Below are positions 4,177-28,522 of a stretch of DNA of 64,000 nucleotides, piece after piece; position 1 is the stretch's first letter; each line of letters starts with the position of its first letter. Location of the stretch: the NCBI GenBank assembly GCA_902795215.1, contig CADBKG010000002.1, positions 2,318-66,317 on the forward strand, written 5' to 3'. The notes under the pieces were generated by a model. That model had not been told where the DNA came from, made no database searches, and saw nothing but the letters and a program-made list of their open reading frames with translations. This DNA comes from an uncultured Erysipelotrichaceae bacterium. GTDB taxonomy: Bacteria > Bacillota_I > Bacilli_A > RF39 > UBA660. Position numbers and translations under genes: made by a program.

Positions 4177-4590
4177 TTATTTTTTTGTTTCTTTTGTATC
4201 TATAGTACCTCTAAATACAACGTATTTATCATATAAATATTCAAGAACAAAATTACATAGCATACTAATTCCTGTAACAATATATTCATTAACTTTTAAG
4301 TTTTTAACTAAGTAGTTACCACCTATTGTAGATGCTGGTGTAAATATTAAATAAAATATAAATACTTTTATCATTGCTTTTGGAATATTTGCAGTTGATT
4401 TAAAGGTATATTCTCTATTTAAAGTAAAGTTCCATATTACACTAGCGACAAGCGCTGTTAGATAGCATACCCAGTATCCAAAACTAGTTAGTTCATTTAA
4501 AATAGTAAAAATTATTATCTCTATTATTCCTGCAGATATTGAAAATAAAGTAAATTTTATCTTTCTAAGTAATTCTTTTTTATCTTTCAT
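4177..4590 (-). CDS. GtrA family membrane protein
   Basis: four hydrophobic segments, WNFTLNREYTFKS motif, C-terminal YVVF. Confidence 0.75.
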   Translation of the reverse strand: MKDKKELLRKIKFTLFSISAGIIEIIIFTILNELTSFGYWVCYLTALVASVIWNFTLNREYTFKSTANIPKAMIKVFIFYLIFTPASTIGGNYLVKNLKVNEYIVTGISMLCNFVLEYLYDKYVVFRGTIDTKETKK

Positions 4591-4642
4591 GTTAACCTCG
4601 CAAGTTTAATTATACATTATTTATTAAATAAAAAAAAGATGA

Positions 4643-5257
4643 TTATTTTTCATCTTCTTTATATTTGATAACAACATGTCTATTAGGTTCTTCACCAGTA
4701 CTTTCTGAATATACATGTTTAAAGTCTTTAATAGCTTCATGAACTACTAATCTTTCATATGAATTCATATTATCAAGTTCTACGTCTTGTTTTGTTTTAG
4801 ATACTTCTCTAGCTATTCTCTTAGCAGTTTTTTGTAAATACATTATTTGTTTATCTTTATAATTTTCAACATCTAATGAAATATAAGGCATTGTACCATA
4901 TTTGTTTTTTACTGCTGCCCTTGTAATAGTTTGAAGAGCTGATAAGTTTTTACCAGTATGTCCTATAAGTAATGAGTTATCGTCAGAATAGATTTTAACT
5001 TTTAATTGTTTTTCTCTTATTTGAGACTCAAAAGATACATCTAATCCCATATTAGTTAGTACTTTTTGTAAGTATCCTTTTATATATTCTACAACATCTT
5101 TTAAAGGAGTTACTGTTAATTCTATTTCTTTTCCTTTAAATAAACTCTTTTTTACTTCTTTTTTACTTACTATTACGTCATCTTCAGTTAGTTTTAATTC
5201 TTCTAAAGCTTGCGCTAGTATTTCATCATAGTTTTTTCCAACATATACATTTAACAT
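4643..5257 (-). CDS. jag: RNA-binding protein Jag/EloR/KhpB (KH + R3H)
   Basis: LIGHTGKNLSALQ KH motif, MNSYERLVVH R3H motif; start moved to ATG 5257 (MLNVYVGK) after the yidC stop. Confidence 0.92.
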   Translation of the reverse strand: MLNVYVGKNYDEILAQALEELKLTEDDVIVSKKEVKKSLFKGKEIELTVTPLKDVVEYIKGYLQKVLTNMGLDVSFESQIREKQLKVKIYSDDNSLLIGHTGKNLSALQTITRAAVKNKYGTMPYISLDVENYKDKQIMYLQKTAKRIAREVSKTKQDVELDNMNSYERLVVHEAIKDFKHVYSESTGEEPNRHVVIKYKEDEK

Positions 5258-5258
5258 A

Positions 5259-6269
5259 TTACTTCTTACCTTTCTTAGTACTATTTTTTGTTTTTGCTTT
5301 ATTTTTAACAACTTTAATTTTGTTATCCTTTTTATTATCTTTTTTTATAAATAAATTTTGAATTATCATAAATACATTAGATACTATCCAATATAGTGCA
5401 AGAGCGCTTGGTAAGCTTAGAGATGCTATTGATATAAATACTATCATTGTATACATCATCATTTTCATTTGACCTTCTTGACCAGTCATACCGTTTTGCC
5501 CTGCCATTGAATTTTTGTATGAAAAATATGTTGTTGCAATTATTAACAATACTAATATGATATAACCAATATTCCCTGATTTAATACCTACAAACGGTGT
5601 TGTACCAAGTTGTAATCCTAAGAAATATCCTTCAAATACTACTGGGATTCTATTAATAGCTTCATAAAATGCAATAATTATAGGTAGTTGTATAAATGAT
5701 GTTACGCATCCTCCCGCTGGAGAAATATCGTATTTTTTATAAATCATCATCATTTCTTGACTCATTTGCATTCTTTCTTCTTGACTAGTTACATTTTCAT
5801 ACTTTTTTTGTAGTCTATTAAGTTCAGGTTGAGCTTTTTTCATATTTTCTGATTGTTTTAATGTCTTTTTTGTTGATGGTATTAAGAATATTCTAATAAT
5901 AACACCCAGTATCATTACAGATAAACCATAATTTTTAACAATCATACCTATTTTAATAATTAACCATGCTAGTGGTTTAATAAGTATTCCATCCCATAAA
6001 CCAACATATTTTAGATCACTTGGTTTATATTCTTCACATTTAGATAATTTATCATAATCTACATCTAGGTATTTTTTATATTTTTTATAAATCTTAATGT
6101 TTTCTTTAGATTCAGGCAAGCATAATATATTAGAAGTTACTGCTTGTCCAGTTGTTTCATTAACTACCCTATTCTTTTTTCCATCAGATAAATACTTGGT
6201 ACATCCTGTTGATAAAAGTATTAATAATGCTAGTATAATAGCTAAATACTTTTGTTTTTTCTTTTTCAT
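5259..6269 (-). CDS. yidC: membrane protein insertase YidC/SpoIIIJ (lipoprotein)
   Basis: lipobox LSTGC, YGLSVMILGVIIRIFLIP, GCVTSFIQLPII, LALYW. Confidence 0.95.
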   Translation of the reverse strand: MKKKKQKYLAIILALLILLSTGCTKYLSDGKKNRVVNETTGQAVTSNILCLPESKENIKIYKKYKKYLDVDYDKLSKCEEYKPSDLKYVGLWDGILIKPLAWLIIKIGMIVKNYGLSVMILGVIIRIFLIPSTKKTLKQSENMKKAQPELNRLQKKYENVTSQEERMQMSQEMMMIYKKYDISPAGGCVTSFIQLPIIIAFYEAINRIPVVFEGYFLGLQLGTTPFVGIKSGNIGYIILVLLIIATTYFSYKNSMAGQNGMTGQEGQMKMMMYTMIVFISIASLSLPSALALYWIVSNVFMIIQNLFIKKDNKKDNKIKVVKNKAKTKNSTKKGKK

Positions 6270-6986: not shown

Positions 6987-7057
6987 AAATTTTTTTAAAA
7001 TTTAGTCTTTATCTTTTGTTACATTTAAGTTAAAATATTTATACATGGAGTGGGGTG

Positions 7058-8470
7058 ATGGATTTGAATGAAGAAAACACTATCATTTGGGAAAACTTTA
7101 TAAATTTGCTAAAATCAAAAATAGCAATGGTATCCGTCAACTCATGGTTCAAGAATTGTAAAATCTATAAAATAGAAGACTCTAGTGAAAACAATAAACC
7201 TATAAAGATTATTACAATTGAATCAAGCTCAAACTTTATAAGAAATGAAATAAAAAAACGTTATACTGATACTATAGAAGAATTAATGGAAAGTATTCTT
7301 GGGAAGCCTTGTAATATTAAATTTATCATACCTGAGGAAAAAGAAAATACTAATAATACTGAAGTTAAAAATCTAACTACTGAAACGGTAATTCCTGTGG
7401 AAAAGAGTAGTACTTATGAACAAAATTATAGTTTTAGTAGTAATCTGCTTAGTAAGTATTCTTTTGATAACTTTGTAATAGGGGACTCAAATAGACTTGC
7501 CTGTAGTGCATCTAAGTCTGTTTCAGAACAACCTGGTAAGCTTTATAATCCTTTCTTTATTCACGGAAAGAGTGGACTAGGGAAGACTCATTTAATGCAT
7601 GCTATCGGTAATTATATAGAAAATACTAGCAATTTAAAGGTTTTATATGTGACATCAGAACAGTTTATAACGGACTTTACTTCAATAAATATGAAAAAAG
7701 ATGCTGATTATACGGAAGCATTTAAAGCTAAATATAGAAATATAGACGTTCTAATGATCGACGATATACAATTTTTAGGTAATGCTGAGAAAACACAACA
7801 AGAATTCTTTCATACATTTAATAATCTATATGATATGAATAAACAAATAATTATTAGTTCAGATAGAAGTCCAGATGATTTAAAACTATTAGAAGAAAGG
7901 CTTAGAACTAGATTTAGTTGGGGATTAACTGTTAATATATATCCTCCAGATATTGAACTAAAAAAGCGTATTATAAAAAATAAAATGTCGGGACATGCTG
8001 TTGCAAAGCTTGTAGATGAAGAAGTAATTGACTATATAGCAAGTAATAGTGAAAACGATGTAAGACATATAGAAGGGGCCGTTACTAGACTTTATGCTTA
8101 TGCTGCTATAATGGGGCCACATAAAATAGATCTCCAATTTGCAAACGAAGCATTAAAAGACTATATTAAAAACTCTATATATATGGATAGTAATATATCA
8201 AAAATTCAAAAAGCTGTCGCTGATTACTATAAAATAACAGTAGAGGACTTAAAAAGTAAGAAAAGAAGTGCTAATATCAATTATCCAAGACAGGTTGCAA
8301 TATACTTATGCAGGAATTATACAGACGAATCTTTTCCTAAAATAGGACTGGAATTTGGAAACCGCAATCACTCGACAATAATACATGCCTGTGATAAAAT
8401 TAAGGAGGATTTAAAAGAAAATCAAACTTTAAGAGAAATAATTAAACAAATAAAAAATAATATAAGTTGA
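7058..8470 (+). CDS. dnaA: chromosomal replication initiator DnaA
   Basis: YNPFFIHGKSGLGKTHL Walker A, LMIDDIQF, domain IV helix-turn-helix. Confidence 0.98.
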   Translation: MDLNEENTIIWENFINLLKSKIAMVSVNSWFKNCKIYKIEDSSENNKPIKIITIESSSNFIRNEIKKRYTDTIEELMESILGKPCNIKFIIPEEKENTNNTEVKNLTTETVIPVEKSSTYEQNYSFSSNLLSKYSFDNFVIGDSNRLACSASKSVSEQPGKLYNPFFIHGKSGLGKTHLMHAIGNYIENTSNLKVLYVTSEQFITDFTSINMKKDADYTEAFKAKYRNIDVLMIDDIQFLGNAEKTQQEFFHTFNNLYDMNKQIIISSDRSPDDLKLLEERLRTRFSWGLTVNIYPPDIELKKRIIKNKMSGHAVAKLVDEEVIDYIASNSENDVRHIEGAVTRLYAYAAIMGPHKIDLQFANEALKDYIKNSIYMDSNISKIQKAVADYYKITVEDLKSKKRSANINYPRQVAIYLCRNYTDESFPKIGLEFGNRNHSTIIHACDKIKEDLKENQTLREIIKQIKNNIS

Positions 8471-9814: not shown

Positions 9815-9851
9815 TAAAAGAGTATAAGGGATGGCGAGGGGAGGTGATGGT

Positions 9852-10325
9852 ATGGAAAAATATAGAATTAGTTCAAAAACACTTGCAGTATTACCGATTT
9901 CTAAAAATAGAACAAAGGTATATGAAAACGATGATATTATTATTGTGGACCAAAATGTTCAAAAAATAATAGAAGAAAATTGTTCATATTATGGTAGTTC
10001 ATATAATTTAAGAAAAGAATATACTGAAAAACTAATAGGAGTAACACACAAATCACCAATTATTATTGAAGATGCATCAAATATTATATTTTTCCCTACA
10101 AGTAGTCCTAGATTAAGAGAATGTGGGTGGATATCACTTAATAATCTTGAATCTAATAAGCAAGTAGGGGACTTTAGTCAGATTACTTTCTTTAATAATT
10201 TAAAGGTTAATCTTAATGTTTCTAATAGGATTATTAGTAATCAAATACTTAGATCAACAAGATTAGAATCAATCGCTAGAAAAAGACAGTTAGAATTAAC
10301 AAAGAATTTGAGTAAAAACCTTTAA
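9852..10325 (+). CDS. comK: competence transcription factor ComK family protein
   Basis: IIEENCSYYGSSYNLRKE, THKSPII, IIFFPTSSPR...CGWI pattern of the ComK family; start ATG 9852 after GGAGGTGA. Confidence 0.85.
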   Translation: MEKYRISSKTLAVLPISKNRTKVYENDDIIIVDQNVQKIIEENCSYYGSSYNLRKEYTEKLIGVTHKSPIIIEDASNIIFFPTSSPRLRECGWISLNNLESNKQVGDFSQITFFNNLKVNLNVSNRIISNQILRSTRLESIARKRQLELTKNLSKNL

Positions 10326-13449: not shown

Positions 13450-15993
13450 ATGGATATCGAAGAAGAAAACAATTTAGAAGAAAACGAATCATTTGATGAA
13501 GCAGCAGATAGAAAACAAGAAAATAACATAGTTAATGAAATAAGCAAATCCTTTTTAAGATATTCAATGAGTGTTATAACTTCTAGAGCTATTCCTGATT
13601 TAAGAGATGGTTTAAAACCTGTTCAAAGAAGAATACTTTTCGACATGTATAAGGAAGGTATAACTCCTGATAAACAACATAAAAAATCCGCAACAACTGT
13701 TGGGTCTGTTATGGGTCTTTACCATCCGCATGGGGATTCATCAATATATGAAGCTATGGTACGTATGGCACAAGATTTTAATTATCGTTATATGCTTATA
13801 GATGGCCATGGTAACTTTGGTAACGTTGAATCTTCAAGACCAGCAGCAATGCGTTATACAGAATCAAGATTATCTAAAATTTCTCTTGAAATGTTAAGAG
13901 ATTTGAACAAAGATACTGTTGATATGATGCCTAACTATTCTGAAGATAAAATGGAACCAGTTACGCTTCCATCTAGATTTCCAAACATTTTAGTTAATGG
14001 AACTATGGGTATCGCAGTAGGTATGGCTACAAATATTCCGCCACATAACTTAACAGAAGTAATTAATGGATGTATTGCTTATATTGACAATCCTGAAATA
14101 GATACTGCAGGACTAATGGAATACGTAAAAGGTCCAGATTTCCCTTTAGGTGGTATAATTTTAGGTAATAAAGGCATAAAAGATGCTTATGAAACTGGAA
14201 GAGGCAGTCTTACAATACGAAGTAATGCTGTTATAGAAGAAAAGGGCGGTAGAAACTATATAGTAGTTGATCAAATCCCTTATGGAGTTAATACTTCTGA
14301 ATTAAAACAAAAAGTAGCAGATTTAGTTAAGAACAAAATAATAGAAGGTATTGCGGATTATCATACAGATTTAAAACATGGAGTTAAAATAACAATTACA
14401 CTTAAAAAAGATGCTAATCCTCAAGTTGTATTAAATCAATTATATAAACATACGGATTTTCAAACAAAATTTGGTATTATATTTTTAATGCTTGATAATG
14501 GAGTTCCTAGAACTCTAGGTTTAAGGGATATTATTGAAAAATATATAATGTACCAAAAGGAAGTAATTGTAAGAAGAACAAAATACGATTTAAAAGTTGC
14601 AGAAGATAGAGTTCATATATTAAAGGGCCTATTAATCGCTGTTGATAACATTGATGAAGTTGTTAAAATCATTAGAGGCGCAGAAACTAGTGAAGAAGCA
14701 CTTGAAAAACTAACTAAACGCTTTGGATTAGATGAAATTCAAGGAAATGCAATTCTAGAAATGCGTTTAAGAAAATTAACAGGCTTAGAAAGAGAAAAGA
14801 TTGAAAAAGAGACTGAAGAACTACTAAAATTAATTGAAGAATTAAAAGCAATTTTAGCTAGTGATGAAAAAATATATGAAGTTATTAAGAATGAATTAAT
14901 TGAAATTAGAGATAAATATGGTGATGAAAGACGTACTCATATCGATATGACTGCTATTGATTATATCGAAGATGAATCTTTAATTCCAGATGAAAATAGT
15001 ATCATTACATTAACAGAAAAAGGATATATTAAACGTTTATCTGTAGATACTTATAAAGTTCAAAACCGTGGAGGTAAGGGAATTAAAGGAATGAGTACTA
15101 ATGAAGAAGATAATGTTAAAATTATGCTTAATATAATGACTCATGACGATATATTATTCTTTACTAATAAAGGAAAAGTATACAGAATTAAAGGATATGA
15201 AATACCTGAGTTTAGTAGACAAGCGAAAGGATTACCTATTATTAATCTTCTAAATATTGAAAAAGATGAACAAGTAAGTTCACTAATAAAGATAACTAAG
15301 GATGAAATTGAAGATGTAAAATATTTATTCTTTGCTACTAAAGACGGTGTAGTTAAGAGGACAAGTCTAGAAGAGTTTAAAAACATTAGACAAACAGGTA
15401 AAATAACAATTACATTGAAAGAAAATGATGAATTAATCGCAGTTAGAAAAACAACAGGCCAAAACAAGATATTACTCGGATCTACAAATGGACATGCTGT
15501 ATTATTTGATGAAAATGAAGTTAGAGTAATGGGAAGAACTGCATCTGGTGTAAGAGGAATTAATATGCCTGATGGCAAATGTATTTGTTGTGAAGTATGT
15601 ACTTTAGATTCTAATTTACTTATTGTTAGTGAAAAAGGGTATGGTAAGCGTACTTTTGTTAAAGAGTTTAGAGAAACTAAACGTGGAAGCAAAGGAGTTA
15701 AAGCTATTAATATAACAGAAAAGAATGGTAAGATTGCTGCAATTAATCTAGTAAGTGATGAAAATGATGCAATTATTATTACTGATTCTGGCATGGTTAT
15801 AAGAATTGGTGTTGAAACTGTATCTCAATTAAGTAGAAATACTCAAGGAGTAAGACTTATTAATCTTAAAGATGAACAATTAGTAACTTCAGTAAGTATT
15901 GTTGATAAATCTGAAGAGGATGAAGAAACTGACGAAGAAAGCAAAGAAACAGCTGAAGAAACTAATAGTGAACAAAAAAACGAAGAGAATTAA
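13450..15993 (+). CDS. gyrA: DNA gyrase subunit A
   Basis: [26 protein letters not shown], GyrA box QNRGGKG, acidic tail. Confidence 0.98.
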
Positions 15994-16020: not shown

Positions 16021-16078
16021 TATTTCCCGGGAAATATTTTAGGGGTACCCCCTCCTTGTGAAACCAGGTACAACCACG
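16021..16078. repeat. composite repeat copy A: Noc-box palindrome + GGGGTACCCC palindrome + conserved tail
   Basis: TATTTCCCGGGAAATA 16021-16036; GGGGTACCCC 16042-16051; tail gaaaccaggtacaacc. Confidence 0.88.
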
Positions 16079-16120
16079 ATTTAGAGCTTTTAAAACACAT
16101 ATTTTTAGTTAAAATGTAAT

Positions 16121-16177
16121 TATTTCCCGGGAAATAATCCAGGGGTACCCCCTAGCTGGAACACTAGGTGCAACCGT
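16121..16177. repeat. composite repeat copy B
   Basis: TATTTCCCGGGAAATA 16121-16136; GGGGTACCCC 16142-16151; tail ctagctggaacactaggtgcaacc. Confidence 0.88.
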
Positions 16178-16219
16178 AATTTGTGCAAAAAATGATTTTT
16201 TGAAAAATTTATTTTTTGA

Positions 16220-16235
16220 TATTTCCCAGGAAATA
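16220..16235. promoter_or_regulatory. Noc-box-like palindrome (one mismatch), 8 bp from parS
   Basis: TATTTCCCAGGAAATA. Confidence 0.7.
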
Positions 16236-16243
16236 AAAAACTA

Positions 16244-16259
16244 TGTTTCACGTGAAACA
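16244..16259. promoter_or_regulatory. parS site 1
   Basis: TGTTTCACGTGAAACA, perfect ParB/Spo0J consensus palindrome. Confidence 0.95.
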
Positions 16260-16317
16260 TTTAGTCAAAAATCTAGTTATTAATATTATAAACTCAAATG
16301 ACAAATATACTTGAAAT

Positions 16318-16424
16318 AAAAAAATGCACCCATCTAGTAGATAGGTGCAACAGAAGGGCAAGATTTCAACTTGCATCTCTTATATTATTATAAGTGTTTT
16401 CACTCGTAAACTACTCTCCTGTGC
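16318..16424 (-). ncRNA. putative orphan sRNA / micro-ORF transcript (about 107 nt; encodes MKTLIII at 16403-16380)
   Basis: extended -10 TGCTATAAT (16438-16430), start near G16424, multibranched fold, terminator TGCACC...GGTGCA plus T-tract ending near 16318. Confidence 0.55.
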
Positions 16425-16498
16425 AAGTTATTATAGCATATATTTTCTTTTTATTAAAACAAATAATATAAAATATATGTTTATTTATAAAATTATGA

Positions 16499-16514
16499 TG
16501 TTTCACGTGAAACA
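16499..16514. promoter_or_regulatory. parS site 2
   Basis: TGTTTCACGTGAAACA. Confidence 0.95.
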
Positions 16515-16695
16515 TCTATAGTGGTATTTAACTACCTGCTAAAAACTGTAATTATACTGCAAAATATCAAATAACAAGATGATTGTTAATTGCTATTAGT
16601 GTAATAAAATAATGGGCAATATTGTAAATGGTCATGTTTAAAAAGTTTAAATTATTATATATGTTTATTATATTATGGTTTTTTGTTAAAATTTA

Positions 16696-16711
16696 TGTTT
16701 CACGTGAAACA
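16696..16711. promoter_or_regulatory. parS site 3
   Basis: TGTTTCACGTGAAACA; the palindrome extends to TTTATG...CATAAA. Confidence 0.95.
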
Positions 16712-16773
16712 TAAAAAAAGAAATTAAATATGCAAAAATTTAATTTTTGAAAAAAACGTTTTTTGTATATAAT

Positions 16774-16830
16774 TATTTCCCGGGAAATAATCCGGGGGGT
16801 ACCCCCTAGCTAGAACACTAATTACAACCG
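16774..16830. repeat. composite repeat copy D
   Basis: TATTTCCCGGGAAATA 16774-16789; GGGGGGTACCCCC 16794-16806; tail ctagctagaacactaattacaacc. Confidence 0.88.
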
Positions 16831-16943
16831 TTATACTATTAAAATTTTGTGATTATATTATTGATATATCCCTATAAATACATTGTGATATATACTAAAA
16901 AAAAGTTGCAAAAATTTGTTTTTTGAAATTGATGCATTATATG

Positions 16944-16972
16944 TTGATAAAATAAATGTAGTTTGATATAAT
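16944..16972 (+). promoter_or_regulatory. sigmaA-type promoter of ffs
   Basis: TTGATA-17 bp-TATAAT. Confidence 0.75.
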
Positions 16973-16978
16973 TAAAAA

Positions 16979-17049
16979 GCACAACGGGCGATTATTGAAA
17001 CTGGTCAGGACTGGAAGGTAGCAGCCATAAAATTTGAACTCGTGTGTGC
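16979..17049 (+). ncRNA. ffs: signal recognition particle RNA (small 4.5S type, about 71 nt)
   Basis: domain IV motif GGTCAGG-ACT-GGAA-GGT-AGCAGCC; closing stem GCAC/GTGC and ACGGG/CTCGT; T-tract after; next to tadA-dnaX as in Bacillus. Confidence 0.9.
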
Positions 17050-17068
17050 TTTTTTGTTGGAGGGAAAT

Positions 17069-17503
17069 ATGGAAGAAAAAATACTAAAAAAACTATTTCA
17101 GTTAGCTAACAAATCATATAATAAAAAAGAATTTCCGGTTGGAGCAATTATATTTGACGACAACTTCAATATTATAAGCACTGGATATAATAGAAGGAAT
17201 AAGAGTAATATAACTATTGATCATGCTGAAATAACTGCGATTACAAAAGCTAACAAAAGACTCAATTCATGGAGGTTAAATGATCTATGTATGATAGTTA
17301 CCCTTGAACCTTGTGATATGTGCAAAACAGTTATTAAAGAAGCAAGATTAAAAGAAATATATTATATTGTTCCAAGATTAAAATACAAAAAACAATATAA
17401 AAATATAATTATCAAACAATACAAGATAAAAAGCGATAAAATCAATAAACAAATAGAAGAATATAGTCAAAAAATATCTACTTTTTTTAATGAGAAACGC
17501 TAG
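17069..17503 (+). CDS. tadA: tRNA adenosine(34) deaminase TadA
   Basis: EFPVGAII, HAE...TLEPCDMC zinc motif; start ATG 17069 after GGAGG. Confidence 0.9.
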   Translation: MEEKILKKLFQLANKSYNKKEFPVGAIIFDDNFNIISTGYNRRNKSNITIDHAEITAITKANKRLNSWRLNDLCMIVTLEPCDMCKTVIKEARLKEIYYIVPRLKYKKQYKNIIIKQYKIKSDKINKQIEEYSQKISTFFNEKR

Positions 17504-23000: not shown

Positions 23001-26000
23001 AATTTATAACTGATAAATTTATATATGATGATTCTAAGGAAATAAGTGGGTTAACCCCAGAATTAATTGCTTTATATGTAGATAATTATTTTAAATCTAA
23101 TAATGAAAATGTTGTCTTGCTTACAAGTAATATGTATGAAGCAAATAATTATTTCAAATTATTACAGGAGTATAATGACGATACCCTGTTTTTTCCAATG
23201 GATGATTTTATAACATCGATGGCAGTAGCGGTATCTCCAGATTTTAAAATAAAAAGGTTAGATACTTTAGATAAAATAAATAGTGAAAATAAGAAACATA
23301 TTATTGTTACATCACTAATGGGATATTTAAAATTTTTACCTAGCACTACGGAAAAACAGTGTCTCACAGTTACCCCCCTCCCCCAAAATATTTCCCGGGA
23401 AATAATTTTAGACACATTAGATGAGTTTGGATATCATAGAGATTCACTTGTAACATCAACTGGTGAATACGCAGTTAGAGGATTTGTAATTGATGTTTTT
23501 CCAATAGGCTATGATCATCCATTTAGAATTGAATTTTTTGGTGATGAAATAGAAGAAACAAAAGAATTTGATGAAAATACCCAGCTTACACTAAAAAAAG
23601 TAGAAAGGTTCGATTTAAAAAGAGTAAATGAAACAATTAACGAGGAAACAAGTTCATTAATGGATTATGTTAATAATGAATCTTTATTTATTATAGACAA
23701 TAATCAACTAGAAATAGCATATAAAATGCTTTCTGAAGAAATAGTCGCATATAATGAAAAAAAAGAAATTACTACTAAACACATGTATGAATTAAATGAG
23801 ATAAAGGCCGGGAAAACATTTAAAGTAAATTCTCTTAACTTATATAAAACTAAAAATCAAATTGTTTATAATTCTAAAACTATCACTAATTTTAATAGTA
23901 ATTTTGATAATTTAAAAAGATATGCATTGGAATCTTTGTTATCTAAGACTGTTTTATTCGCATTGTCAAACGATAAACAAATAGAAAGAATTAAAGAATT
24001 ATTTGATGAGGTATATTTAAATCCTAAAAAAATAGTGGATAACAAAATAAATATTATTAAAAGCAACATAAAAAATGGCTTTATATTTGAAGACTATATT
24101 ATAATTGGACCTTATGACATTGAATCATTAAAGACTAAGAACGTAAAATATAAAAATCCTATTAAAATGGGACATAAAATTAAGAACTTTGATGAACTTA
24201 CAATTGGAGATTATATTGTACATGAATCATATGGAATTGGTATATATAATGGTATAAAAACTCTTAAAAAAGGAGAATATTTAAATGATTATATTCAGCT
24301 TTTATATGCCGACAATGATAAAGTATATGTATCAGTAGATAATATTGGTAAGTTGTATAAGTATTCATCAAAGTATTCTTCTGTTAAATTAAATAAGTTA
24401 AATAGTCCAGCTTGGACTAAAAAGAAGCTTGCGGCAAGACAAAAAATAGATGATATAAAGGAAGAATTAATCAAGCTATATCAAGAAAGATCAAAAATTA
24501 AGAAAGATAAAATGAAAGACTATCCTGAAGAAGAAGCTTTTGCTTTTGAATTCCCATATGAACTTACTAAAGATCAAGAAAAATGTATATATGAAATTAA
24601 TGAGGATTTAAAAAGTACAATTCCTATGGATAGATTATTGTGCGGTGATGTTGGTTACGGAAAAACAGAGGTAGCTTTTAGGGCCATGTTTAAAACAGTA
24701 TTAAATGGTGGATGTGTAGCGTATCTTTGTCCAACAACTATTCTTTCTAGGCAACAATATGAAAACGCTTTAGAAAGATTTAAGAATTATCCAGTAAATA
24801 TAGCATTACTAAATAGATACACATCACAAGCAGAAACAAGCAAAATAATTGAAAAACTAAAAACAGGCAAGATAGATATATTATTTGGAACACATAAACT
24901 TTTAAATGATAAAATAGATTATAAGAATTTAAAACTACTCGTAGTAGATGAAGAACAAAGATTTGGAGTTAAACATAAAGAAAAAATTAAAAGTTTAAAA
25001 AATGATATAAACGTGCTTACACTATCTGCAACTCCAATACCAAGAACACTAAAGATGGCTATGAGCGGGTTAAGAGGATTATCTATCCTTGATACACCAC
25101 CAGTCAATAGATATCCGATAGAAACTTATGTAATAGAGGAAAACGAACTTATTATTAGAGACGCTATTTATAAAGAGTTATCAAGAGATGGACAAACTTA
25201 TATTCTTGTAAACAATATTGAAGAAATGCAAGCTTTGGTAACAAAAATTAAAGAATTAGTACCAACTGCAAGCGTAGTCGGTGCGCATGGTCAAATGAAT
25301 AGTAATGATTTAAATGGAATCATGCAAGACTTTGTTAAAGGTAATTATGATATTTTGGTCTGCACAACAATTATTGAAACCGGTATAGATATACCTAATG
25401 TAAATACTATTATAATTATTGATTCAGATAACTTTGGTTTATCCCAGCTTTACCAAATAAGAGGAAGAGTAGGTAGAAGTGATAAAATAGCATATGCCTA
25501 CCTTATGTATAAACCATCTAAAATACTAACTGAAACTGCAACAAAAAGATTAGAATCAATAAAAGAATTCACAGAACTAGGTAGTGGTTATAAAATAGCT
25601 TTAAGAGATTTATCAATCAGAGGCGCCGGAGACATACTTGGAAAAGAACAAGCGGGATTTATAGAAGCAATTGGACTAGATTTATATACAAAACTAATTA
25701 ATGAAGAAATATCTGGTGAAAAAGAAGAAGAAACAGAAAAGAAAATGTTAAATATTTCTACTCATATAGATGATAATTACACAGAAGATGAATCAATAAA
25801 AATAGAAATACATAAAATGATTAATGAAATCAAATCAAAAAAAGATTTAACAAAAGTTAAAGAAGAACTTGAAGATAGATTTGGAAATGTTCCAGAAGAA
25901 ATAGAAATATACATGATAGAAAAGTGTATAGAAAATATCTTTGAAGAATTAAATATTAAAAATATAATTCAAACAACAAGAGAAATAGAAATAAGCTTGC

Positions 26001-26718: not shown

Positions 26719-26750
26719 AATTAACAAACAATTGTGTTATATTACATTTA

Positions 26751-26945
26751 TTAAGCGGTGAAGAAAAGAGTAGATTATAAGAGTTTTAAGAGAGACTTTG
26801 GTTGGTGAAAAAAGTTAAACTCGAGTTTTTGAACATGGTTTTGGAGCTTAAACGTAATTCTTGCGTTAAAAGAAAAAAGAGCATGGGAACATGAATTAAG
26901 GTGGTACCGCGGGTTAATCTCGTCCTTTAGTTCGTGTTTTTTTTA
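26751..26945 (+). promoter_or_regulatory. T-box riboswitch (Met specifier) upstream of metG
   Basis: AGAGAG and GGTTGGTGAAA stem I motifs; specifier ATG at 26835-26837; T-box AATTAAGGTGGTACCGCG at 26894-26911; antiterminator closes with CTCGTCCTT. Confidence 0.9.
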
Positions 26946-28488: not shown

Positions 28489-28522
28489 TATTTCCCGGGA
28501 AATATTTTGGGGGTACCCCCTA
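28489..28522. repeat. composite repeat copy E (Noc-box + GGGGGTACCCCC) between metG and tatD
   Basis: TATTTCCCGGGAAATA 28489-28504; GGGGGTACCCCC 28509-28520. Confidence 0.88.

Follow-up and report, generated by a model that had tools for sequence, protein, structure and literature searches.

What are two kinds of site that are usually seen as belonging to separate systems, the parS sites of the ParB origin centromere and the scattered, division-blocking Noc-binding sites (NBS), doing side by side in one short spacer near a chromosomal origin, and which protein reads them? The question is raised by positions 16021–16830 of a 64-kb stretch of DNA (64,000 nucleotides; hereafter the window) from an uncultured Erysipelotrichaceae bacterium. 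An earlier note on this DNA had described the stretch as a centromere-like hub of parS and NBS in which a G+C-rich palindrome accompanies NBS at a fixed phase. Taken as a whole, the locus is in our judgment rather probably an origin-proximal platform for ParB-family clamps with two classes of site, in which stand-alone NBS carry an adjoining G+C-rich block (G/C block). The sequence at hand around the origin amounts to 87 kb of the contig (the window and its flanks), and chance expectations come from dinucleotide-preserving shuffles of the window.

We found three perfect parS sites (TGTTTCACGTGAAACA) in the window, at 16244, 16499, and 16696, where the shuffles give 0.03. They are copies of the 16-bp palindrome TGTTNCACGTGAAACA, and they are origin proximal: dnaA lies at 7055–8470, and the array is ~8–9 kb downstream from it. 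NBS (TATTTCCCGGGAAATA) occur six times, five perfect and one with a single mismatch (0.05 expected), and all six fall between 16.0 and 28.5 kb within the 87 kb of contig. Two perfect NBS had been overlooked previously, one inside the mfd reading frame (23389) and one in the 48 bp that separate tatD from an aminoacyl-tRNA synthetase gene (28489). The palindrome GGGGTACCCC is found four times in 64 kb (16042, 16142, 16796, and 28510; 0.06 expected), always 18–19 bp centre-to-centre from an NBS, and since the G+C content of the window is only 27%, such palindromes stand out. The first three NBS are spaced by 100 and 99 bp. The third pairs with parS 1 (24 bp centre-to-centre, a gap of 8 bp). A repeat unit of ~58 nt is present in three copies, with 76% identity overall. 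The array is bordered by gyrA, whose stop codon at 15993 precedes a terminator hairpin, and by the gene for the small signal recognition particle (SRP) RNA. On recount, the earlier coordinates and spacings of parS, NBS, and GGGGTACCCC were all correct; the description of the stretch as gene-free was not, given a small-RNA candidate on the minus strand (16318–16424) and the SRP RNA gene from 16973 on. The features are as follows.

13450–15993, plus strand: gyrA, left border; open reading frame of 847 aa; Pfam DNA_topoisoIV/DNA_gyraseA_C on the identical sister-strain gene; relatives 66–71% identical
16021–16036: NBS 1, perfect TATTTCCCGGGAAATA; unchanged in sister strain L183
16042–16052, plus strand: G/C block 1, GGGGTACCCCC, 5 bp from the NBS edge; GGGGAGCCCCC in the sister strain
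16053–16080, plus strand: tail of unit 1; includes GTGAAAC (16058), a parS half-site core
16121–16136: NBS 2, perfect
16142–16152, plus strand: G/C block 2, GGGGTACCCCC; kept in L183
16153–16180, plus strand: tail of unit 2; includes TGGAACA (16157), a variant parS half-site core
16220–16235: NBS 3, TATTTCCCAGGAAATA, one mismatch (G to A), without G/C block; same mismatch in L183
16244–16259: parS 1, perfect
16318–16457, minus strand: small-RNA candidate (16424 to 16318) with promoter-like TTAATA-16-TATAAT (16457–16430); folding beats shuffled controls by a wide margin, z = −3.5
16499–16514: parS 2, perfect
16696–16711: parS 3, perfect
16774–16789: NBS 4, perfect; directly 3′ of a promoter-like TTGAAA...TATAAT
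16794–16806, plus strand: G/C block 4, GGGGGGTACCCCC; orthologous unit NBS-ATTTA-GGGGTACCCCCTAGCTAGG in relative L305
16807–16834, plus strand: tail of unit 4
16944–17058, plus strand: small SRP RNA gene (16973–17058) with its promoter, TTGATA-17-TATAAT; right border
23373–23404, minus strand: mfd-internal composite of a C-run CCCCCCTCCCCC (23373–23384), AAAA, and NBS (23389–23404)
28489–28520, plus strand: lone NBS (28489–28504) with G/C block GGGGGTACCCCC (28509–28520) in the gap between a T-box-regulated aminoacyl-tRNA synthetase gene and tatD

To place the array among relatives, one genome per GTDB species was scanned for an NBS core 4–30 nt from a parS core; the figures for array loci given here and below are counts among the matches listed and are thus lower bounds. 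Nearly all matches listed belong to one clade of uncultured gut Bacilli, and the relatives of GyrA are likewise from gut metagenome-assembled genomes of uncultured "Bacilli," "Tenericutes," and "Erysipelotrichaceae." A mixed array in the spacer between gyrA and SRP RNA–tadA, syntenic with the window, is present in at least 116 species-representative loci. The gene setting is fixed (gyrA, array, SRP RNA–tadA–dnaX), and the SRP RNA adjoins the array in all 13 relatives tested. The proposed hub of parS and Noc boxes is genuine and occupies the same locus in more than 100 species. At this place the nearest GTDB relative, L001, has NBS, 6 bp, and two consecutive parS. Arrays are often strictly alternating, with up to 13 NBS and 12 parS, and several consist of tandem repeats (periods of 64, 75, 80, and 172 bp) with one parS and one NBS per unit.

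The two classes of site are kept apart. Relatives' arrays (at least 116 loci) hold at least 403 pure parS and at least 308 pure NBS; chimeric sites joining half a parS to half an NBS number zero among ~720 sites in the matches listed, and single-base variants only about 10. The spacer of sister strain L183 is 9% divergent from that of the window, and its seven NBS and parS sites show no change in 112 bp (P ~ 6 × 10⁻⁶). As judged from these alignments, parS and NBS are each under strong and separate purifying selection, which implies two strict binding specificities.

Three further features of the relatives' arrays can be recorded here. One relative has a perfect parS inside the 3′ coding end of gyrA (L310 926–941, L311 1370–1385), so array sites can reach into the gene. 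Several arrays lie at contig ends (L133 1133–2147, L062 20–435, and L065 22–362); this suggests that tandem parS/NBS repeats break short-read assemblies, and the arrays are probably longer than they appear. DnaA boxes (TTATCCACA, or one mismatch from it) directly adjoin parS, typically as TTATCCACA-N0-1-parS (for example, L308 8400–8412 and 8848–8860; L310 1016–1025, 1194–1203, 1373–1382, and 1550–1559; L307 2304–2328). Such a box is found ≤14 nt from 59 of 425 parS and 21 of 319 NBS (background ~1%), in 28 of 108 loci; none adjoins the sites in the window's own spacer.

A candidate reader is encoded to the left of the window, where the gene order is mnmG-rsmG-(relB/yafQ)-ParB-family gene (471 aa)-penicillin-binding protein gene (other strand). 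The earlier note had expected both noc and parB beyond rsmG. A Noc-type gene is indeed there, downstream from rsmG as noc should be; neither parB nor parA lies beside it. In relatives the gene is directly adjacent to rsmG; here a RelB/YafQ-type toxin-antitoxin pair (L022 12617–13215) is inserted between the two. The product has the domains of a predicted ParB/Noc clamp dependent on cytidine triphosphate (CTP): ParB_N (Pfam, 2e-34), HTH_ParB (5e-33), a C-terminal domain, and CTP motifs that are invariant in 75 orthologues, GERR (G60 E61 R62 R63) and ENxQR (E94 N95 Q97 R98). The AlphaFold2 model of an orthologue (P0116) shows a confident N-terminal domain and helix-turn-helix (HTH), joined through an extended disordered linker to a small C-terminal domain, again confident, of a helix and a β-hairpin. 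No sequence in the PDB significantly matched the C-terminal domain. The closest PDB structures to the protein are Noc (7NG0, 8e-59), ahead of Spo0J (6e-49), and its HTH reads GVTQATIANKIRLLNL..ISERHAR.

The choice between parS and NBS is set by four positions, R173 T179 A184 G201 in ParB and Q173 K179 K184 R201 in Noc, and one lysine, at 179 or 184, is enough for NBS specificity (PMC7383237). The rsmG-linked protein has Q173 K179 N184 R201 (QKNR), the residues of an NBS reader, and ~130 orthologues have the same combination. An amphipathic helix (aa 1–14) is needed for membrane binding and function of Noc (PMC4331003). The protein here starts at the equivalent of about residue 25 of Noc, without such a helix, and all orthologues begin MN(N)EQVQ... 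No Soj/ParA homologue was found in the window, its flanks, or any clade locus examined, and outgroups (Gemella, Clostridia, and Negativicutes) carry noc-soj-spo0J together. Lacking both a membrane helix and a ParA partner, the rsmG-linked protein should behave as a ParA-less ParB; it would be an origin organiser or possible SMC loader rather than a classical nucleoid-occlusion factor.

We propose that the stretch at 16021–16830 would act as an origin-proximal loading platform for ParB-family CTP-dependent DNA clamps, with the NBS class read, to go by the recognition residues, by the rsmG-linked Noc-type protein and the parS class by a separate parS-specific ParB. A separate reader is expected because the residue rules in PMC7383237 predict NBS specificity where Q173 and R201 are combined. 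This parS reader is most likely a second ParB encoded elsewhere. The 87 kb around the origin hold no second ParB-family gene, nor do the ±8 kb that flank the orthologue of 22 relatives or any of the at least 116 array loci; a ParB of the R173/G201 type is likewise missing from the 87 kb of contig and from the surroundings of the orthologue of these 22 relatives. A degenerate DNA pattern for ParB-type (Q/K)ISEGHARxLL retrieved mostly ParBs of Chloroflexota and Patescibacteria from GTDB; the sole match inspected that combined high identity to the query protein with membership of the clade came from L225.

The specificity residues themselves vary in nature. Two orthologues at the same syntenic position are RKNG, that is, they have the ParB-type pair R173 and G201. 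One, P0154 (L180 4681–5679), is found in three independent assemblies (samples ERZ27280243, ERZ1029112, and ERR3224570) in the context mnmE-mnmG-rsmG-X-penicillin-binding protein; it is 85–87% identical to QKNR orthologues, and when the four positions are masked, a tree places it well inside their group. The other, the L225 protein (metagenome-assembled genome CANRLQ01; 4369–6180, minus strand; 603 aa; context mnmG-rsmG-X), has nearest homologues that are 74–78% identical and all QKNR. Each Q/R and R/G change is a simple point substitution. This indicates that both specificity-switching residues were flipped together in nature at least twice, independently, as far as the protein alignments tell. 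RNA editing was considered as the source of the Q/R and R/G differences and dropped: the genetic code leaves no route other than A to G, and the codons do not stand in a TadA-like context.

These orthologues raise an alternative in which there is a single reader: The rsmG-linked protein would use NBS as well as parS for loading, and the mixed array would allow a lineage to change from Q..R to R..G or back. The RKNG proteins, standing at the same syntenic position as their QKNR relatives, speak for it, as does the single ParB-family gene in all the regions just listed where outgroups have noc-soj-spo0J side by side. However, the deep mutational scan of PMC7383237 found R173 invariant among parS binders, and its dual-specificity variants mostly had T/S201, not R201; zero chimeric half-sites among ~720 fit two strict specificities better than one relaxed one; and the single-gene count covers the origin region and the listed loci rather than most of each genome. 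We consider a single reader unlikely. A fuller version, to which we give slightly more credence while still regarding it as doubtful, has one ParA-less, helix-less Noc/ParB clamp serving a composite parS and NBS centromere, with flips between Q173/R201 and R173/G201 made survivable by the mixed array and the G/C extension of one sub-lineage acting as an oriented loading site. If true, the ParB-to-Noc specificity switch that was engineered in the laboratory would here be under way in nature. The QKNR and RKNG combinations are absent from the supplementary data of PMC7383237.

With two readers retained as the preferred account, the element beside NBS remains to be explained. No G+C-rich palindrome was found near any NBS or parS in at least 115 other species, so GGGGTACCCC first seemed unique to this one. 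The loci of the nearest relatives, fetched via their TadA homologues, show otherwise. In L305 (TadA 69% identical) NBS-ATTTA is followed by GGGGTACCCCCTAGCTAGG, and in L306/L307 (64%) two sites read NBS-TTA/TATA-GGGGGGATGGGT; sister species thus have different block sequences at an equal offset from NBS. The G/C block is 11–13 bp long and starts 3–5 bp outside NBS, with a G-run first when read outward, and GGGGTACCCC is one form of it. Within this sub-lineage a window of at least eight G+C in 10 nt occurs within 22 nt of 10 of 11 perfect NBS and of none of 14 parS (background 2.5%); in the wider clade it accompanies none of 303 NBS among the matches listed. The block is confined, in the genomes compared, to a small sub-lineage. 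Two NBS are without it, each ~24 bp from a parS: L305 428, the only perfect one, and the mismatched 16220 in the window. The only block change in L183 is TA to AG in unit 1, by which the palindrome is lost and the G/C block kept.

The mfd copies are the most telling. Read on the minus strand, the composite of the window is NBS-TTTT-GGGGGAGGGGGG. In the reading frame, ACCCCCCTCCCCC-AAAA-NBS encodes TPLPQNISREI in the window, CCCCTCCCCCTC-AAA-NBS encodes NPSPSNISREI in L306, and CCCCTCCCCC-AAAAA-NBS encodes DPSPKNISREI in L308/L309; the composite occupies the same codon positions in the three species, whose amino acids differ there. The codons that it takes up in the window are rare in the window's genes (for Pro, CCC at 3%; for Leu, CTC at 1.5%; for Ser, TCC at 3%; for Arg, CGG at 1 in 335). 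Rare codons combined with differing amino acids mean that the DNA itself is conserved, not only the protein. On this codon and offset evidence the G/C block is selected at the DNA level, and its palindromy appears incidental. The proposal of a partner element at fixed phase to NBS holds, then, with the G/C block and not the GGGGTACCCC palindrome as the partner, and co-occurrence with NBS in relatives extends to the sub-lineage and stops short of the wider clade.

What follows the block has a different history. The tail, which had been taken as conserved, differs at seven of 84 positions between the window and L183, about the neutral rate. It may instead hold a relic parS half-site: The cores at 16058 and 16157 are otherwise rare in the window, and their presence suggests that the ~57-bp units may be descended from NBS-parS pairs. 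Searched with blastn against all fetched loci, the tails have no homologues. The exact arrangement NBS-N(5-12)-GGGGTACCCC has no match in GTDB representatives; a lone match in a Joint Genome Institute metagenome was rejected as chance, in unrelated G+C-rich DNA. The units do not form a repetitive extragenic palindromic (REP) or miniature inverted-repeat family, which would be marked by numerous scattered copies that have defined ends, target duplications, or terminal repeats: there are three local copies and one partial, with no more in 87 kb. Of the suggestion that a REP-like element spreads Noc boxes, local duplication making three copies is what stands. The ~57-bp units would have been born from such duplication, as NBS, block, and decayed flank.

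It could be argued that block and tail together are functionless passengers of the duplicated NBS segment, hitch-hiking in a REP-like manner. Three copies sharing a 58-nt unit within 0.8 kb would be accounted for, as would the lack of such a block in at least 115 other species, and the changes between strains (two of 33 positions in the 11-mers, seven of 84 in the tails) are near the 10% neutral rate. Yet the 11-mer is identical in four copies of which spacer and tail are only 60–79% identical, the TA-to-AG change between strains leaves the G/C block in place, another G-rich block stands at this offset in sister species, and the mfd copy is held by codons at 0.3–3% usage, conserved in three species. 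Of the two, the tail is probably a passenger and the block probably is not; as an account of both, the passenger explanation is improbable.

Still a little less probable is a role of GGGGTACCCC as operator for a separate DNA-binding protein, a symmetric dimer co-recruited with Noc, an idea also raised in the earlier note. A perfect palindrome of 10–12 bp at fixed phase, in four copies here and one in L305, is what such an operator would look like. Nonpalindromic blocks at the equivalent positions (GGGGGGATGGGT in L306/L307, GGGGGAGGGGGG in mfd copies, and GGGGAGCCCCC in L183) argue against it, and we found neither such a site in the literature nor a candidate factor. That the units act as RNA, as a structured small RNA or as minus-strand terminators, is hardly credible: a consensus scan flags two blocks as weak minus-strand terminator-like hairpins and NBS 4 lies just 3′ of a promoter-like site, but the units gain nothing over shuffles in folding energy on the two strands (z between −1.2 and +1.3), have no Rfam match at gathering or E-value thresholds, carry a T-rich run after only two of four blocks, and include a copy inside the mfd reading frame.

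We return to the platform with two site classes. Here a stand-alone NBS with its G/C block would be an oriented, extended NBS in which the block gives the Noc-type protein an additional contact or lets a partner dock. Several points weigh against this picture. The parS reader is missing from all inspected DNA, which leaves the two-reader scheme incomplete. The putative assignment to NBS goes back to residues that were worked out for ParB of Caulobacter and Noc of B. subtilis, and position 184 of the rsmG-linked protein is N, not K. The protein also scores 290.1 bits with the NCBIfam Noc model (TIGR04285), below the cut-off of 315, although this is still its best-scoring family. The wider clade lacks the block at the 303 NBS listed, yet has essentially the same HTH, so a sub-lineage-specific partner or protein change must act; an extended Noc site would require such a sub-lineage-specific change, and none was identified. 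Finally, the block copies are partly paralogous or orthologous, and their counts overstate independence.

Comparison with known systems places the locus between several of them. It shares with Noc/NBS of B. subtilis the identical 16-bp site, Q173, K179, and R201, the CTP-binding motifs, and the gene position downstream from rsmG. The B. subtilis NBS are scattered along the chromosome and spare its terminus, whereas those here are origin proximal and interleaved with parS, some with a G/C block; Noc has the N-terminal amphipathic membrane helix, and the protein here has none, with instead a disordered acidic/proline linker of 120–270 residues and a score under the family cut-off. Streptococci have a chromosomal ParB without ParA. 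Chromosomal ParB-parS systems, the streptococcal included, resemble the locus in perfect origin-proximal parS, a predicted ParB-family CTPase without nearby ParA, and probably a loading and spreading platform; they differ in that the only ParB-family protein here has NBS-type residues and that parS alternates with NBS in tandem units. As in the ParB-to-Noc switch of PMC7383237, the exchanges are Q173 with R and R201 with G at specificity-switching positions with a constant K179. That switch was engineered in Caulobacter ParB, whereas here natural orthologues 85–87% identical differ at one locus, at least twice.

Two further systems are instructive. P1 parS is a bipartite plasmid centromere with A-boxes and B-boxes, and like the unit here it joins a primary HTH site to a short second motif at fixed distance as an oriented composite. 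Here there is no sign of the same protein reading the G/C block, no IHF-like element was seen, and the block sequence is variable (a G-run, 1–2 nt, and a G- or C-run). The ram sites of RacA in B. subtilis are G+C-rich palindromes clustered near the origin; the likeness lies in short G+C-rich palindromes in an AT-rich origin region and in chromosome organisation, and the differences in the sequence, in palindromy that is not conserved here, and in the constant tie of the block to NBS.

We regard the locus as a variant of the ParB/Noc centromere organisation whose mechanism we in part infer. New are the conserved tandem fusion of known components, a Noc-type protein with neither helix nor ParA, the double switches in nature, and the selected flank; we found no description in the literature of mixed parS/NBS arrays or of an NBS-linked G/C block. 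The one family member that could be detected is of the Noc type, yet without the membrane helix it cannot do what Noc does. A role of NBS apart from nucleoid occlusion, the reader of parS, and natural specificity switching can now be put to the test, and the G/C block tells us that selection at a ParB-family site can act on bases beyond the 16-bp core and even override codon usage inside a gene.

The remaining features of the window are minor. The small-RNA candidate would be a transcript of ~105 nt with two hairpins, a strong intrinsic terminator (16349–16325), and a TG-extended promoter-like site. It has a weak Rfam match to SpF41 (E = 4.5e-4, below the gathering score) and is kept in the sister strain with five of 107 positions differing; blastn against all fetched loci gave no homologue beyond that strain. 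An A/T-rich promoter-like element, TGCAAAAA..TTTTTTGAAAAA, has three copies in the spacer (16184–16218, 16731–16765, and 16897–16928), one of them directly upstream of NBS 4. At the right border, the tadA-like open reading frame has a mechanical GTG start at 17042 (to 17503) that overlaps the SRP RNA; homologues of 139–144 aa indicate the ATG at 17069. The aminoacyl-tRNA synthetase gene before the lone NBS is preceded by a T-box leader (26749–26930; Rfam, 108.8 bits), and its stop codon is 1 nt from the NBS and G/C block at 28489. In the origin cluster, a ComK-family gene (Pfam, 1e-36) occupies the gap between dnaN and recF (9831–10325) and is also present in relative L308.

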